From positions 1 through 6,001 of IMG/VR virus record IMGVR_UViG_2585427725_000002: DNA of 6,001 nucleotides. One strand, written 5' to 3'. Made by a program: the position numbers and the translations under genes. The notes under the pieces are model-generated. The model was not told where the DNA came from, did not search any database, and saw only the letters and a list, made by a program, of their open reading frames with translations. Origin of the DNA: a virus. Lineage: Duplodnaviria > Heunggongvirae > Uroviricota > Caudoviricetes. Below, piece by piece: positions 1-6,001 of this stretch (positions are counted from its first letter, which is position 1; each line of letters opens with the position of its first letter).

Positions 1-2
1 CC

Positions 3-188
3 CTGCCGATATCTTTCAGCAATACCAATTATTGTGTTGTTGCATCGTACGATAATGCACGGTCAGGTGCGTCAACAATGGTTAGTTTTGCAGCATTACC
101 TGTTTCACCATCGCAATTTTCCCTGATGTCATCTGTGACTGAGCAAGGAATAAATCCTTTTGCTTACTGGATTGCTTTTGGAGATTGA
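3..188 (+). CDS. Alternative tail-fibre C-terminal variable segment, 3' end only (5' part off-window); promoterless in this orientation
   Basis: Frame 3 is open from the window edge to TGA at 186..188 (61 codons, ending ...INPFAYWIAFGD). It sits directly upstream of, and in frame with, the plus-strand tfa gene (TGA TAA then ATG at 192), which is the arrangement expected for the silent fibre/tfa pair of an invertible segment. Not in the ORF track because it lacks a start inside the window. Confidence 0.45.
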   Translation: MPISFSNTNYCVVASYDNARSGASTMVSFAALPVSPSQFSLMSSVTEQGINPFAYWIAFGD

Positions 189-191
189 TAA

Positions 192-611
192 ATGGACAGA
201 TACTTCTATTCACAAAAAGAAAATGGTTTTTTTACCGATTTAAATAAAGCACCTTCAGATGCTGTTGAGATAACCACGGATGAATGGCTATCACTACTGG
301 ATGGTCAGGATAATGGCATGAAAATAGTCAGCAATCAGGAGGGATATCCGGTTTTGACAGAGCAACCACCTTTATCAAAAGAAAACCTTATTGCATTGGC
401 AGAGTTGAAAAAAGGAAAACTTATTAATGAAGCCAACGAGCACATGAACAGCAGGCAATGGCCTGGTAAAGCGGCTATTGGTCGTCTGAAAGGTGAGGAA
501 CTGGCGCAATATAATTTGTGGCTGGATTATCTGGACGCACTGGAACTGGTTGATTCCTCCAGTGCGCCAGATATTGAATGGCCTACGCCTCCGGCAGTTC
601 AGGCCAGATGA
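192..611 (+). CDS. Tail fibre assembly protein (Tfa/gpG/U-like chaperone), alternative copy
   Basis: 139-aa ORF with ATG at 192. The C-terminus (LDYLDALELVDSSSAPDIEWPTPP) carries the conserved Tfa C-terminal motif and parallels the C-terminus of the minus-strand tfa. It is convergent with that gene and overlaps it at 583..611. Confidence 0.8.
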   Translation: MDRYFYSQKENGFFTDLNKAPSDAVEITTDEWLSLLDGQDNGMKIVSNQEGYPVLTEQPPLSKENLIALAELKKGKLINEANEHMNSRQWPGKAAIGRLKGEELAQYNLWLDYLDALELVDSSSAPDIEWPTPPAVQAR

Positions 612-1185
612 CATCCGGCGCGGTGCTGGTATCTGTTGCCGTCACCGCGTCAATGTAATCCAGCACAGCGTTAAGTCGGGTGGTTTCTGCCTGCGTCAGC
701 TTCCGTCCGGCCTGTAGTTTCAGTTGAATCAGACTAATGGAAGCCATTGCTGCATCAATAAGTGACTGGCGCAGTGCTTCTGCCGCGTCTACTGCGGCAT
801 TATGCTGTGCCTCAGTATCTGTCACCCATTTCTCACCATCCCATTTATCGTATGGCGTTAACGGGGCGATAGTGGTTGTATTATCAGGGTAATCACCCGG
901 AGCTGTGATTTCTTTTGATTCTCCTGTTTCGGTGCTAAAGACGATTTCACCGCGATGGTCTGGCACATATTCCCATGAGTTAAAATCTGCAGATCGGCAG
1001 ATTGCATAACCAGTTTTGTATGAGCCAGGAGCATCTAAACAGGAACATGCCGGAATGCCGACACCCACAGCAAGATATTCAGTTGATGTGAAAATATATT
1101 CCCGTGTTTCACCATCATAGTTATAAACCGTAATATTTCCTGCCTGGGTGGCGATAAATTCGTTATTTAATACAGCGTAATCCAT
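583..1185 (-). CDS. Tail fibre assembly protein (Tfa/gpG/U-like chaperone)
   Basis: 200-aa ORF with ATG at 1185..1183. The C-terminus (LDYIDAVTATDTSTAPDVIWPELPEA) is the characteristic Tfa motif. Its start overlaps the fibre stop by 1 nt (TAATG), indicating translational coupling. Confidence 0.85.
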   Translation of the reverse strand: MDYAVLNNEFIATQAGNITVYNYDGETREYIFTSTEYLAVGVGIPACSCLDAPGSYKTGYAICRSADFNSWEYVPDHRGEIVFSTETGESKEITAPGDYPDNTTTIAPLTPYDKWDGEKWVTDTEAQHNAAVDAAEALRQSLIDAAMASISLIQLKLQAGRKLTQAETTRLNAVLDYIDAVTATDTSTAPDVIWPELPEA

Positions 1186-2000
1186 TATGCAGCCCTCACG
1201 ATATAATTAAAGGCAATGTTTCGAGGACGGTTTTCGTTTGCAGTTGGAACAACTCTGGAAGCATCAAATGTTACTCGCTTTGCATAACCACCTTTAATTG
1301 AATCAGATGAAGCATCTCCGATGACGCTGGTTGTAAAAACGCCAGAATCAGAAGGATAGGTATTAAACCTGACATCTACTAATGCACCAATTATATTTCG
1401 AATGGCATCGCCCTGTGATGCAAGCAAGCTACGGTTAGTATCAATTCCTCTTCCGTCATCCCAGCCACGAATAAACTCACCACGTAAATCAGGTAATTTA
1501 TTTGTCGGGTAAGCCTTTGCCAGTTCCGGGTATTCTTCAGCAGAAAAAGCCGCACCATTGCATTTCAGCCAGCCTGTTGGCGGAGTGGCTGAAGGCCACG
1601 GAACAGGGACACCAACAGGTAATGCAGAGCCTTCTCCCAAACCAAGGTTTTCGAGAGCCGTTGGTACCGTGCCGTCCGATTTGATATCACCAAACGGATT
1701 ATTGCGGCTCAGGTATTCAACAGCAAACCCCGATCCCAGCAATTCAACAAAACCGGGCAGATCACCATTATCAAGCACATCCCGTTGCGTTTTATCACTT
1801 ACAAACTGGGCCAGAGCTGCAGCAATAAAGCTGGCCTGCCGAATAACCTTATTGACTTGCGCACTGGAGGCTTTCCCTGCTGTAAATCCGGATAAAAGCG
1901 CGGGCAACGCTTCCCATTCCTCCTGCGATATAACATTGGCATTTCGATCCGTTGCAAACGCTTTAAAGTCATTTTTCGCCATCAGAGTAATACTCCCCAT
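1185..2000 (-). CDS. Short tail fibre protein with a constant N-terminus and an invertible C-terminal part
   Basis: 271-aa ORF. The C-terminal part has a tail-collar-like stretch ([22 protein letters not shown]...[13 protein letters not shown]), it lies immediately upstream of tfa, and the crossover site falls in frame at codons A115..E123. The true start may instead be Met7 (ATG at 1982..1980), which gives a TGATG coupling with the upstream gene. Confidence 0.85.
1632..1657. other. Site-specific inversion crossover site (hix/gix/cix/pix-like) for a serine invertase
   Basis: The 26-bp sequence TTCTCCCAAACCAAGGTTTTCGAGAG has the imperfect dyad AAACC-NN-GGTTT with a central AA, closely resembling hixL (TTCTTGAAAACCAAGGTTTTTGATAA, recalled from memory). 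It lies inside the fibre ORF, where it encodes LENLGLGE. Confidence 0.6.
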
Positions 2001-2662
2001 GCTCCTACATCAAAACCACTGATGAATTCGTTATCCATATCAAAACCAAAAAATTTTGAGCCTTCCGATGGGGTTTCCACCGAAGGTGTTTCAATGCCAC
2101 CCGCCCATACCCCGGCAGCTTTTACTGTGAGATACCCCTGTTTAATTGCCGCAATTAACTCACGCGATACATCTGAAATATCAGTATCAGGAAAGACCCA
2201 GACCGATATCGTCATGTCCTGGTTATCGACTATCTGCATTCGCAGCCCGGATCCTGCTGTTGCAGAGTCAAGAATTGCCGGAAGCGAATCATTCCGTCCA
2301 TCCCAGTTATTAATCGCAATCTTCGCTTTAAGAATGACACGATAAGTTTCATCGCTGAGGTACATGTATCCGGAATCAGGATCGTATGGTCCCTGCCATA
2401 CCCCCTGATCATATCCAAGCCCGTCGGTATCCCAGCTGAAATAGACACCTGAGATAGGCTGGCTGACAACACGGCTACGTCCGATCCACAATCCCAGAAT
2501 GTCAAGTTGCACACCAACCGCAGAGTCAATATCAAATGCAGTAATCAGCCCTCTGGTGGCAGCCGCAACATCAATAAGCGGCCGGGTCATCAGATCAACA
2601 TGCGCAAGAAATTTAGGTTTGGTGGCGTGGTAGTTCGTGATTAGTTCGGTGTATTTGCTCAT
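1982..2662 (-). CDS. Phage tail/baseplate protein I-like (P2 gpI / Mu gp48 family, DUF2313-type)
   Basis: 226-aa ORF placed between the baseplate J-like gene and the fibre gene, as in P2 (J-I-H) and Mu (gp47-gp48-S). Its start overlaps the J stop as ATGA. The assignment is by synteny and size; family membership is recalled, not searched. Confidence 0.65.
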
Positions 2663-3858
2663 GACTCCACCGTTATAACGATATTTTCCGGGGTACAGGA
2701 CGCAGATTCGTTGTATCTGATATCAATGTTTGATGACGACAAAGCCCCCGGGGATTTCCCAATCGTCAGTTCCTGAATATCGTAATAGCGTGCATTCCCG
2801 CCACTCACCACGCCAAGATTCGCCGGTGAGTAAATGCGACTTAAAAGGACCGAATCACCAATCGTCAAACTATTGATATAGTCGGAAATAGCCTGCTGGA
2901 TCTGCTGCCCTATCTGTGAGGTATAACCCGTAAAAACTTTTAATTTAATCCGGGCATAAACAGGCACATCACTGGAACGCGAGAATTTGATTACATGGGG
3001 ATTGCCGTATTTATCCGGAACCGTAACGGATGTTGTACCGTGAGTGGCTGTCCCCTGGCCTTTATTCCCTCTGATAGCCTGAGCAATATCCGTCACATCA
3101 CCGCCATCCACAATTACAGCAACAGAGTGTGGCGGTAACCCGTTACCGTCCTCCGAACCAGTATCGTTTTCATAGAGTTTGTGGCGGGTTACACCGGGAA
3201 CATTAGAAACAGCACCATCCAGTGCTTCAAATGGGGTTATTGATGGCAACGCAACACTTTGCGACTGGCGGATACGTAACTCAGCATCAGTTTCTGCCGG
3301 AGAGCCAACAGTAGCCGCAGCAGGATTAGTTACCGAAACCCAGCCACGGGTTGGCGTATTAATTTCAGTGATAGTTCCAGCCAGCGCCGCCACTGCACCA
3401 CTGACGGAACATGTTGCGGTCGCCATCACTGTACCATCCACGCCGACCACCACTGAAGCAGGCAAACGCCATATCACATTATTACTGTCTTTCACGCTGC
3501 CATTAATGATGGTTGTTCCGGCAGTTCCTGTAAGAAGCAAATCAACCGTAGAGTTCGTCGCGCCTTTACGTGAAATACCATTTATTTTCACGTTACTGGT
3601 CAGTGCAGCCCCATAGCCGGTTGCCGGTGAAAAACAGTTGTAGACAGTTATCGCCATATTATTGGCATCATGAATCGCCAGCGCCATCAGAGCCACCATC
3701 TGGCCGTCTTTGCTGTCCGGTTCGAGGTAGGCATCACTGCCATAAATCTGCTGAAAATAGCTAATCAGGGTGCTGAGTATCGTCTGATAATCAGGCGCAC
3801 TGATCCCCTCCGCGGTTACCTTTGCAGATAAACCGAGAGAATCAAGGTTCAGAGCCAT
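2659..3858 (-). CDS. Baseplate J-like protein (P2 gpJ / Mu gp47 / T4 gp6 family)
   Basis: 399-aa ORF with a GGAGG ribosome-binding site about 5 nt upstream of the ATG. Its size and position between the W-like and I-like genes fit the family. Start overlaps the upstream stop (TAATG). Confidence 0.8.
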   Translation of the reverse strand: MALNLDSLGLSAKVTAEGISAPDYQTILSTLISYFQQIYGSDAYLEPDSKDGQMVALMALAIHDANNMAITVYNCFSPATGYGAALTSNVKINGISRKGATNSTVDLLLTGTAGTTIINGSVKDSNNVIWRLPASVVVGVDGTVMATATCSVSGAVAALAGTITEINTPTRGWVSVTNPAAATVGSPAETDAELRIRQSQSVALPSITPFEALDGAVSNVPGVTRHKLYENDTGSEDGNGLPPHSVAVIVDGGDVTDIAQAIRGNKGQGTATHGTTSVTVPDKYGNPHVIKFSRSSDVPVYARIKLKVFTGYTSQIGQQIQQAISDYINSLTIGDSVLLSRIYSPANLGVVSGGNARYYDIQELTIGKSPGALSSSNIDIRYNESASCTPENIVITVES

Positions 3859-4211
3859 TACGCCTCCGATGTAACAGTCGTTATTCCATAGAGAGTGTCG
3901 ATTTCAGCGGAAAACATGACACGTCGGGTCGTGGTATCCACCGTCGTATTGAAAGAGAGGATTGATTTAACGCCCTGCGTTTCGAGGATGCGCTTACGGA
4001 TCGCCAGGTTGTAAGTTTCTGGTTTTTGCCTGCCCAGCACGGACTGGATCCACGGTGTTCCCTCTGTGGTATCAAGAAACCATTGCCCATACCACAATTC
4101 GAATCGCGTTTTCACAGCCTGCGCTACGGCCTCAGGCGAGTTAATCAGCCAGGTGTCATCACCGCTGCCAAAGGTGTAATCGCCATCGGCGTCTTCACGT
4201 CTGTATCGCAT
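3858..4211 (-). CDS. Baseplate wedge protein, gpW/gp25-like (Mu gp46-like)
   Basis: 117-aa ORF located between the spike V-like and J-like genes, with the size typical of gpW/gp25. It is translationally coupled on both sides. Assignment rests mainly on synteny. Confidence 0.6.
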   Translation of the reverse strand: MRYRREDADGDYTFGSGDDTWLINSPEAVAQAVKTRFELWYGQWFLDTTEGTPWIQSVLGRQKPETYNLAIRKRILETQGVKSILSFNTTVDTTTRRVMFSAEIDTLYGITTVTSEA

Positions 4212-4963
4212 CAGTTTACCCCGTCGGTACTGCTTCCACCACGCTGAACACCACCATGAGTGTGTGTATCATCGATTGGCTTGCCATTAGCCTTCACGCT
4301 CCCCAAAAACTCAACAGCACCAGTGATTTTTGAAGCCACACCAGAAACCACAGACCCCACCATGCCCCCCATCCAGGTTAACAGGCCATGAATGGTTACT
4401 TTCTCAGAAAAATCAGCCAGAGGGGCAACCACATCAAGACCACCTGGAGCGACAATTTTAATTTTCCTGGTATCAGGATTAAGCTCAAAATAGGTGCTGC
4501 CGTCATCACTACGCAACTGTGTGGCACTGGTATTAATACCGCTAATCTTCCTTGCCTGCGACTGGGGACCGACAATACAAAACGCATCCGATAAATCATG
4601 CATTCTGTCATCGACCGACTCCTGTATCCCGCCACTCTGCCACCAGAAATCAATACAACGATCGGCAAAAATCACCAAACATTCATCACCGGCTTTAACT
4701 GGGAACGTTAGCGTACATCCTCCGCCGCGCGGGAATACCACTGGCACATCCACCAGCAATGGGTAATTTTTGGTAATGCGGTTGCCGTCATTATCCTTTT
4801 CAACCGAACGGATAGCAGGCTGCACAACTGCCGTCACCGCATCAGGATCGAATGACTGAATAATGCCAGGCAAGGCGACACGGATCTGGTTCTTTGTTGT
4901 TTCCCGTTCAGATTTGAATGTTTCGGCAAGGTCGCCGCTGCGGGTCTGGTCAGATACTGCCAT
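4211..4963 (-). CDS. Baseplate assembly protein V / central spike (P2 gpV, Mu gp45-like)
   Basis: 250-aa ORF with a GGAG ribosome-binding site 8 nt upstream of the ATG. It contains the OB-fold-like motif FPVKAGDECLVIFADRCIDFWW, comparable to the GDEvLVxF motif of Phage_base_V proteins, and a His-rich C-terminal tip (DDTHTHGG). Confidence 0.75.
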   Translation of the reverse strand: MAVSDQTRSGDLAETFKSERETTKNQIRVALPGIIQSFDPDAVTAVVQPAIRSVEKDNDGNRITKNYPLLVDVPVVFPRGGGCTLTFPVKAGDECLVIFADRCIDFWWQSGGIQESVDDRMHDLSDAFCIVGPQSQARKISGINTSATQLRSDDGSTYFELNPDTRKIKIVAPGGLDVVAPLADFSEKVTIHGLLTWMGGMVGSVVSGVASKITGAVEFLGSVKANGKPIDDTHTHGGVQRGGSSTDGVN

Positions 4964-4980: not shown

Positions 4981-5006
4981 GCAAAAAACCCGCCGAAGCG
5001 GGTTTG
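4981..5006 (-). terminator. Rho-independent terminator (minus-strand reading)
   Basis: The minus-strand transcript reads AAACCCGC-UUCG-GCGGGUUU followed by UUUGC: an 8-bp GC-rich stem with a UUCG tetraloop and a U-tract. It lies between the truncated upstream ORF stop (5023) and the V-gene ribosome-binding site. Confidence 0.6.
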
Positions 5007-5022
5007 ATAACGTTAATTTTAT

Positions 5023-5144
5023 TCATGAAACTCTAGCAGACTTTAGCTGTTCCCAGCGCTCAAAATAGAGTTCAGCAGCCTCGATTGCATCCTGTCCCAT
5101 CTCTTTCGAAACAGTCACATTCGTCAGATCATAGTCAGCTTCAT
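5023..5144 (-). pseudogene. 3' fragment of an unidentified gene interrupted by the IS2 insertion
   Basis: One minus-strand frame stays open from the IS2 junction (5144) to TGA at 5025..5023, about 39 codons ending ...ELYFERWEQLKSARVS. The other two frames stop immediately. The upstream part would lie beyond the IS2. Confidence 0.35.
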
Positions 5145-5185
5145 TGGATTTGCCCCTATATTTCCAGACATCTGTTATCACTTAA
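5145..5185. repeat. IS2 right terminal inverted repeat (IRR, about 41 bp)
   Basis: The terminal sequence matches the remembered IS2 IRR. The exact inner boundary is approximate. Confidence 0.7.
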
Positions 5186-6001
5186 CCCATTACAAGCCCG
5201 CTGCCGCAGATATTCCCGTGGCGAGCGATAACCCAGCGCACTATGCGGATGCCATTCGTTATAATGCTCGAACGCCTCTGCAAGGTTCTTTGCTGCCGTT
5301 AACCCGTCTGGTTTGGGCATGATACTGATGTAGTCACGCTTTATCGTTTTCACGAAGCTCTCTGCTATTCCGTTACTCTCCGGACTCCGCACCGCCGTGT
5401 TCTTCGGTTCAAGTCCCAACATCCGGGCGAACTGGCGTGTTTCATTAGCCCGGTAGCATGAACCATTATCCGTCAGCCACTCCACTGGAGACGACGGAAG
5501 ATCGTTGCCGAAGCGGCGTTCCACCGCTCCCAGCATGACGTCCTGTACTGTTTCACTGTTGAAGCCGCCGGTAGTGACCGCCCAGTGCAGTGCCTCACGA
5601 TCACAGCAGTCCAGCGCGAACGTGACACGCAGTCTCTCTCCGTTATCACAGCAGAACTCGAACCCGTCAGAGCACCATCGCTGATTGCTTTCTTTCACGG
5701 CCACTCTGCCTGTATGTGCCCGTTTCGATGGCGGTACAGCAGGTTTTCGCTCAAGCAACAGCGCATTCTGGCGCATGATCCGGTAAACACGTTTGGCATT
5801 GATCGCAGGCATACCATCAAGTTCTGCCTGTCTGCGAAGCAGCGCCCATACCCGACGATAACCATACGTGGGCAGCTCTCCGATAACATGGTGTATACGG
5901 AGAAGCACATCCGTATCATCAGTGTGACGACTGCGGCGGCCATCCATCCAGTCATCGGTTCGTCTGAGAATGACGTGCAACTGCGCACGCGACACCCGGA
6001 G
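5156..6001 (-). CDS. insD: IS2 transposase OrfB (InsD), N-terminus off-window
   Basis: The translation ([26 protein letters not shown]...WCSDGFEF...[10 protein letters not shown]...[14 protein letters not shown]...RCLEI, stop TAG at 5158..5156) shows the IS3-family DDE motif and matches IS2 InsD as I remember it. The track's leading M at 5995 is a GTG, an in-frame Val; the real start lies upstream, off-window. Confidence 0.9.

Follow-up and report, generated by a model that had tools for sequence, protein, structure and literature searches.

Does the tail-fibre gene near the left end of this phage DNA belong to an invertible host-range switch, in which one fibre stalk is joined to either of two C-terminal tips? 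An earlier note on the window (the whole 6,001-nt stretch of DNA analysed here) had interpreted it in that way, and this interpretation is supported. The window very probably contains the fibre-proximal end, together with about 90%, of a 1.82-kb Din-type segment (Hin, Gin, Cin, Pin), more precisely one of the e14 P-segment type. This segment comes last in the tail operon of a prophage that has a contractile tail and is of the E. coli/Shigella type. Switches of this type are already known, and relatives of the locus are already annotated with pinE, tail fibre, and tail-fibre assembly protein. The window shows the features by which such segments are recognized, namely a site in frame within the fibre gene and two C-terminal arms, each with a chaperone, in convergent arrangement. 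The second site and the invertase gene lie outside the window, so that the switch is incomplete as observed. The features of the window, from left to right, are the following:

3-188, plus strand: 3' end of the silent fibre arm, last 61 codons and stop (Pfam Gp53-like_C, E = 4.7e-6)
192-611, plus strand: tfa', 139-aa TfaP-like chaperone of the silent arm (Pfam Caudo_TAP, E = 2e-25)
583-1185, minus strand: tfa, 200-aa TfaE-like chaperone of the expressed arm (Pfam Caudo_TAP, E = 4e-32)
1185-1631, minus strand: variable fibre arm (C-terminal, expressed), 149 aa, Collar, StfE-like, inside the segment (Pfam Collar, E = 2e-15)
1632-1643: inner half-site of the crossover site, TTCTCCCAAACC
1644-1645: core of the crossover site, AA
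1646-1657: outer half-site of the crossover site, GGTTTTCGAGAG
1658-1979, minus strand: constant N-terminal part of the fibre, outside the segment (alignments with annotated relatives)
1982-2662, minus strand: wedge/DUF2612 gene (Pfam; annotation of relatives)
2659-3858, minus strand: baseplate J gene (Pfam; annotation of relatives)
3858-4211, minus strand: 117-aa sheath-initiator-like gene (sheath initiator by annotation of relatives)
4211-4963, minus strand: spike gene (spike N-terminal domain and GpV apex motif, Pfam)
5144-6001, minus strand: incomplete IS2 copy, continuing past the end of the window (domains rve, rve_3, and HTH_21)

The phage genes from the spike through the fibre to the 200-aa tfa are all on the minus strand and stand in tail-operon order.

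Crossover site, fibre gene and the two arms

The 26-bp crossover site, which reads TTCTCCCAAACCAAGGTTTTCGAGAG on the plus strand, occupies positions 1632-1657, and both the position and the codons that had been proposed for it (A115 to E123, in frame) are exact. It lies within the minus-strand fibre ORF (1185-2000) and encodes ALENLGLGE, codons 115-123 of the 271-aa ORF. The two half-sites agree with each other at 9 of 12 positions around the 2-bp core, and the symmetry is therefore imperfect. With up to 3 mismatches allowed, the site occurs once in the 6,001-nt window, and neither the site search nor a repeat search found an inverted copy inside the window, in keeping with the earlier note, which had placed the second site to the left of it. 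The same 26 bp, with no differences, are present in stfP (ycfK) of the e14 prophage of E. coli K-12 MG1655, where the inverted partner site, TTCTCCCAAACCAACGTTTATGAAAA, adjoins pinE. The gix sites of Mu equal the window site at 18 of 26 positions and have the half-site pattern TTnTCnnAAACCnnGGTTTnnGAnAA in common with it; they differ in the core dinucleotide and in variable half-site positions. Among GTDB species representatives, the exact 26-bp site was found at 8 loci, which by alignment are e14-like or other elements.

Judging from alignment with annotated relatives, the fibre almost certainly starts at the ATG at 1979 (MAKNDF...), which would give a protein of 264 aa rather than 271 aa. 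The shorter form is the likelier one because relatives are annotated from this ATG, which overlaps the stop codon of the wedge gene as ATGA; counted from here, the site forms fibre codons 108-116. An exact look-up of the fibre protein returned no record for either the 271-aa or the 264-aa form. Immediately outside the site, positions 1658-1709 encode a conserved block that is common to StfP of e14 and that, with the site region included, comprises 27 aa.

On the other side of the site, the earlier note had placed a variable fibre part followed by tfa and, further to the left, a convergent tfa' (192-611) and the 3' end of an alternative fibre C-terminus (3-188). The Pfam matches bear out all of these assignments: the Collar domain and the second Caudo_TAP match (583-1185) account for the variable part and its chaperone, tfa' has a Caudo_TAP match of its own, and 3-188 encodes the C-terminal 61 aa of a Gp53-like_C arm, with a match that passes the Pfam cut-off. 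In the present orientation, this silent arm has no promoter and neither an N-terminus nor a start of its own. It is identical at 187 of 188 nt to positions 7810-7997 of the related locus L005, where the silent arm spans from the second site to the same stop and is 115 aa long in all. The 3' ends of tfa and tfa' overlap convergently by 29 bp. Alignment of the two Tfa proteins, which the earlier note had suggested along with that of the two fibre C-termini, showed similarity confined to about 65 C-terminal residues (35% identity), and sequence comparison of the Collar arm with the gp53-like arm detected no similarity. Unrelated arms with mostly distinct chaperones are as expected for two receptor-binding tips, each having its own folding helper. 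When joined in silico to the silent arm, the constant part of the window fibre continues in frame to give 232 aa; the fusion has the length and layout of the annotated gene of locus L004, from which few residues differ.

Second site, invertase and orientation in related loci

If the window carries such a segment, the second site would be expected about 160-185 bp left of the window, inverted and containing TTCTCCCAAACCAA, with a serine invertase gene just beyond it. Thirteen related loci were examined for both elements. All 13 have an inverted second site, 1,817-1,868 bp away, in which the inner half-site and the AA core are unchanged; it sits outside any fibre gene and, in the relatives that are collinear with the left end of the window, falls about 160-185 bp left of position 1. 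Beyond this site an intact serine invertase gene (Resolvase+HTH_7, 182-190 aa; Pfam E = 8e-52 for Resolvase and 1e-15 for HTH_7) is present in 11 of the 13. In the other two, L014 and L016, the invertase gene beside the cassette is truncated, which makes a locked copy plausible. L005, which is 99.94% identical to window positions 1-1709, has its second site at the window equivalent of -185 to -160 and a 184-aa Resolvase+HTH_7 gene at -794 to -240, the product of which is 79% identical to Mu Gin and near-identical to PinE of K-12. Likewise, in the closest E. coli matches (96-98.6%), pinE lies about 240 bp left of the equivalent of window position 1. The exact 139-aa Tfa' protein was found in 320 blocks of the assembly index, and among the matches listed it stood in the same cassette, with an adjoining Resolvase+HTH_7 gene of 182-190 aa, in 10 of 10. 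The ORFs of the segment in the window are all intact and are 99.8-99.9% identical to copies that adjoin intact invertases.

Opposite orientations of the segment were observed in three pairs of loci, L008/L004 (pao), L010/L012 (trpA-ompW), and L009/L007, with each pair representing one chromosomal site in different strains. The flanks within these pairs are 99.4-100% identical, and the approximately 1.8-kb segment between the sites is reversed. The outer half-sites (GGTTTTCGAGAG on the fibre side and CCTTTTAGAAAA on the invertase side) change partners; a marker at site position 7 (T or C), which is part of the inner half-site, remains with the inner flank. From the swapped outer half-sites and the fixed marker together, the exchange maps to the interval from site position 7 to 15, which, as read from these alignments, fits cleavage at the central AA. 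Two 300-bp junction sequences were also used as queries against complete E. coli genomes, 5,426 in number; the constant part is joined to the Collar arm in 55 genomes and to the gp53-like arm in 12, a census that compares genomes and not the cells of one culture. In the case of e14, both orientations coexist in clonal K-12 cultures, as determined by sequencing and PCR (PMC4272514); mixtures within a culture are documented in PMC12529663 as well. Either PinE or PinQ inverts the e14 segment at the repeat CCTTCTCCCAAACCAA (PMC12529663), which is present at 1630-1645 of the window. In a systematic survey with long-read confirmation, phage tail-fibre genes were among the families enriched for programmed inversions (PMC9881135).

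Proposed switch and its known counterparts

According to the proposed model, transcription would enter the constant fibre part from the upstream baseplate genes, which belong to the same operon. Transcription and translation would begin outside the segment, in the constant 116 codons, and cross the site into whichever arm faces it. The present orientation is predicted to yield a 264-aa fibre with a Collar tip and the 200-aa TfaE-like chaperone. In the Hin and Gin systems, each site is occupied by a serine invertase dimer, and the synaptic complex is put together by Fis from its enhancer. Cleavage at the core of both sites is staggered by 2 nt, and the segment is then inverted by rotation of the subunits. 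Here the invertase would presumably cut both sites at the central AA, rotate the strands, and religate them. After the flip, the constant part would be fused in frame to the gp53-like tip, giving a fibre of 232 aa, and the 139-aa TfaP-like chaperone would be brought into the transcribed orientation. The two tips probably bind different receptors, in which case a population of lysogens would release particles of two specificities. This particular copy would probably still be able to flip.

The earlier note had likened the locus to the e14 P and Mu G segments, and both comparisons hold. Apart from the identical fibre-side site, the P segment of e14 and the window type agree arm for arm: the second sites agree in their inner half-site and AA core, the four genes are laid out alike down to the 29-bp convergent overlap of the tfa genes, and the segment is 1,817 bp long in the window allele vs. 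1,827 bp in e14. In the window's relatives, the invertase is either PinE or a protein nearly identical to it. Amino acid identity to the e14 counterparts is 89% for the 200-aa Tfa (TfaE), 54% for the 139-aa Tfa (TfaP), about 60% for the Collar arm (StfE), and 33% for the silent arm (C-terminus of StfP). On the other hand, the constant N-terminal part of the e14 fibre is unrelated to that of the window outside the 27-aa block, and the baseplate module of the window has a DUF2612 wedge whereas that of e14 has the DUF2313 protein YmfQ. The orientation in the window is also opposite to that of the K-12 reference, in that the E-type arm is the expressed one. The window is an e14 P-type segment that is carried on a different tail module, a contractile tail with a DUF2612 wedge.

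The G segment of Mu (gin, S/U, S'/U') resembles the window in that a constant fibre part is fused across the site to either arm, both arms have a chaperone gene of their own behind them, and the arms converge. The Mu invertase gene lies just outside the far site, as it does in the window's relatives, and Mu S reads ...QNLGL... across its site, where the window site likewise encodes NLGL. The Mu segment differs in being about 3 kb long, in having much longer arms, and in belonging to a different tail module. The P1 C segment (cin) and the Min region of plasmid p15B also combine an invertase of the same serine family with a crossover site in the fibre gene and alternative fibre C-termini; p15B Min has six sites and many arms, in contrast to the two arms of the window. 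With respect to the tail module, over the baseplate and the constant fibre part the window is 96-97% identical to the vB_EcoM-606R2 record and 78% identical to Salmonella phage SEN34. In the vB_EcoM-606R2 record the cassette recurs next to a 'DNA invertase'; the left-arm alleles there are different and the invertase gene is truncated.

IS2, alternative readings and possible cassette exchange

At the right end of the window, the IS2 copy (97-99% identity to annotated copies of IS2) is inserted in a small gene that lies upstream of the spike gene, and collinearity with the relatives ends at 5145. It is not part of the switch, and it marks the prophage as damaged. The IS2/prophage junction was found in no complete E. 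coli genome, and its 36-bp sequence was absent from GTDB species representatives and from JGI metagenome contigs. Rfam gave 0 matches in the window. A promoter and terminator scan of the window gave counts not above those of shuffles, the lone convincing match being a terminator at 4986-5005.

The damage to the prophage bears on two alternatives to a working switch. One is that the locus is a locked fossil, whose own invertase or second site has been lost or truncated, so that the Collar arm stays permanently joined to the fibre unless another Pin-family invertase in the cell acts in trans. IS2 disrupts the prophage about 180 bp upstream of the spike gene, the recombinase is truncated beside an otherwise intact cassette in L014 and L016, and the segment of e14 can be inverted in trans by PinQ of another prophage (PMC12529663). 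Given that the ORFs of the segment are intact and nearly identical to copies beside intact invertases, and that 11 of the 13 relatives retain an intact invertase, a locked state is possible but unlikely. The other alternative is that the segment has been domesticated, its inversion yielding a chimeric fibre fragment that blocks the adsorption of other phages. This has been reported for the homologous e14 segment, which has the same repeats: StfE2 of e14 protects cells against T2 by blocking adsorption, in an inversion-dependent manner (PMC12529663). The IS damage in the window would be compatible with such a role. However, the baseplate, fibre, and chaperone genes are complete, intact, and in operon order, the loci of close relatives extend into a full set of tail genes, which fits a working role in the virion, and the arms of the window are just 33-60% identical to those of e14. 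By analogy with e14, a protective function may be entertained here, although it appears quite improbable.

A further alternative denies the site itself, by regarding the 26-bp match as chance coding sequence, as the earlier note had allowed, or as a conserved protein motif that serves as a joint for homologous recombination. The site does lie inside the conserved 27-aa block, and an older lineage joint of the window fibre gene falls near 1700-1709, in this block and not at the site. Nevertheless, 0 of 200 dinucleotide-preserving shuffles contained a match, the site is identical to a crossover site in experimental use, that of e14, and the exchange in natural inversion pairs maps within the 26 bp. 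Furthermore, the second site keeps the inner half-site and core without any constraint from fibre coding. Such a reading retains hardly any probability; the identity with e14, the exchange of half-sites, and the inverted pairs effectively refute the site as chance or as a joint only. The invertible switch of the e14 P type remains the preferred reading.

As a textbook phage host-range switch, of a segment type already annotated in hundreds of E. coli genomes, the locus matters little beyond its correct annotation. Annotation pipelines call the fibre and a 'gp53-like' fragment as separate genes and thereby miss that these are alternative ends of one protein, and a difference in orientation between otherwise identical genomes can mimic a misassembly or a structural variant. 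Since inversion in e14 is reported to be protective against T2, cassettes of this kind in damaged prophages may deserve functional interest.

The allele of the window recurs at 99.8-99.9% identity in loci with Mu-like, P2-like, and DUF2612-type baseplates. The flanking DNA to the left and right of it is unrelated or highly diverged in these loci, and their invertases share only about 50% identity; both boundaries of the near-identical stretch fall inside the two 26-bp sites. In the window fibre gene, the older joint near 1700-1709 lies in the conserved block just upstream of the site. A near-identical allele amid unrelated flanks suggests that the cassette is exchanged as a unit among unrelated tails, and the segment may tentatively be viewed as a discrete, horizontally mobile host-range cassette with the crossover sites as its edges, doubtful as this still is. 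The pattern would fit exchange of the whole segment between co-resident prophages by intermolecular invertase recombination. Din invertases are thought to avoid intermolecular reactions strongly, and the ordinary alternative is homologous recombination in short conserved sequences. Tail-fibre genes have long been regarded as mosaics, and exchange as a unit is in line with this.

Placement and relatedness of the invertible segment

The invertible segment, comprising two fibre arms and two tfa genes between inverted 26-bp crossover sites, is 99.8–99.9% identical (window 1–1656; L005 7630–9465 vs. L010 7630–9465) between loci with flanking sequences that, on either side, are unrelated or strongly diverged. 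These flanks encode Mu-like, P2-like, or DUF2612-type baseplates, the invertases are ~50% identical, and both ends of the segment identity fall inside the two crossover sites. Near-identity amid such flanks, bounded by the crossover sites, suggests that the segment passes from phage to phage as a discrete cassette. Among the matches listed (loci L005–L013), the cassette occupies several chromosomal sites (pao, trpA-ompW, the rcsC region, agaD, and yfhH-tadA) and lies at the end of prophages representing at least three types of tail; in every case it sits at the prophage edge, and the outermost gene is the invertase.

Two close relatives have a truncated invertase gene beside an otherwise intact cassette (L014, 3983–4297; L016, 3047–3313); natural locked versions of the switch therefore exist. 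The exact 26-bp site was also detected at 155–180 of L024, a 5.8-kb contig from a metagenome-assembled genome labelled "Bacillota bacterium," accompanied there by 79 bp of conserved fibre-block sequence; the likeliest explanation is mis-binning of an enterobacterial contig.

Within the window, the two tfa genes converge and share 29 bp at their 3′ ends (583–611), precisely like tfaP and tfaE of e14, the defective prophage of E. coli K-12. The two Tfa proteins carry a similar C-terminal motif (SSAPDIEWP and STAPDVIWP).

A chimeric fibre gene

The fibre gene is a chimera with a joint near 1700–1709, within its constant part (1658–1979, minus strand). The two sides of the joint match different loci:

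1–1709, left of the joint: matches the L005 allele
1710–1979, minus strand, fibre constant part right of the joint: matches the tail type of L008 and L004, a pair at the pao locus

The match to the L005 allele includes the marker substitutions AAT, GAC, and GTACCA within the conserved fibre block. With its markers, this switch of alleles is a sign that homologous exchange once took place immediately upstream of the crossover site rather than at the site itself.

IS2 insertion and a predicted terminator

Upstream of the spike gene (4211–4963, minus strand), a small gene, which encodes 131 aa in L004 (3863–4258), is interrupted by IS2:

5023–5143: remnant of the interrupted small gene
5023–5181: 52-aa ORF, the truncated remnant read out of the IS end
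5144–6001: partial IS2 copy

The IS2/prophage junction had no carriers among complete E. coli genomes, GTDB representatives, and JGI metagenome contigs. Between the spike gene and the interrupted gene sits a hairpin with the features of a strong intrinsic terminator (AAACCCGCTTCGGCGGGTTT and then a run of Ts; 4986–5005, minus strand), and the position of this predicted terminator suggests a transcription boundary within the tail gene cluster.
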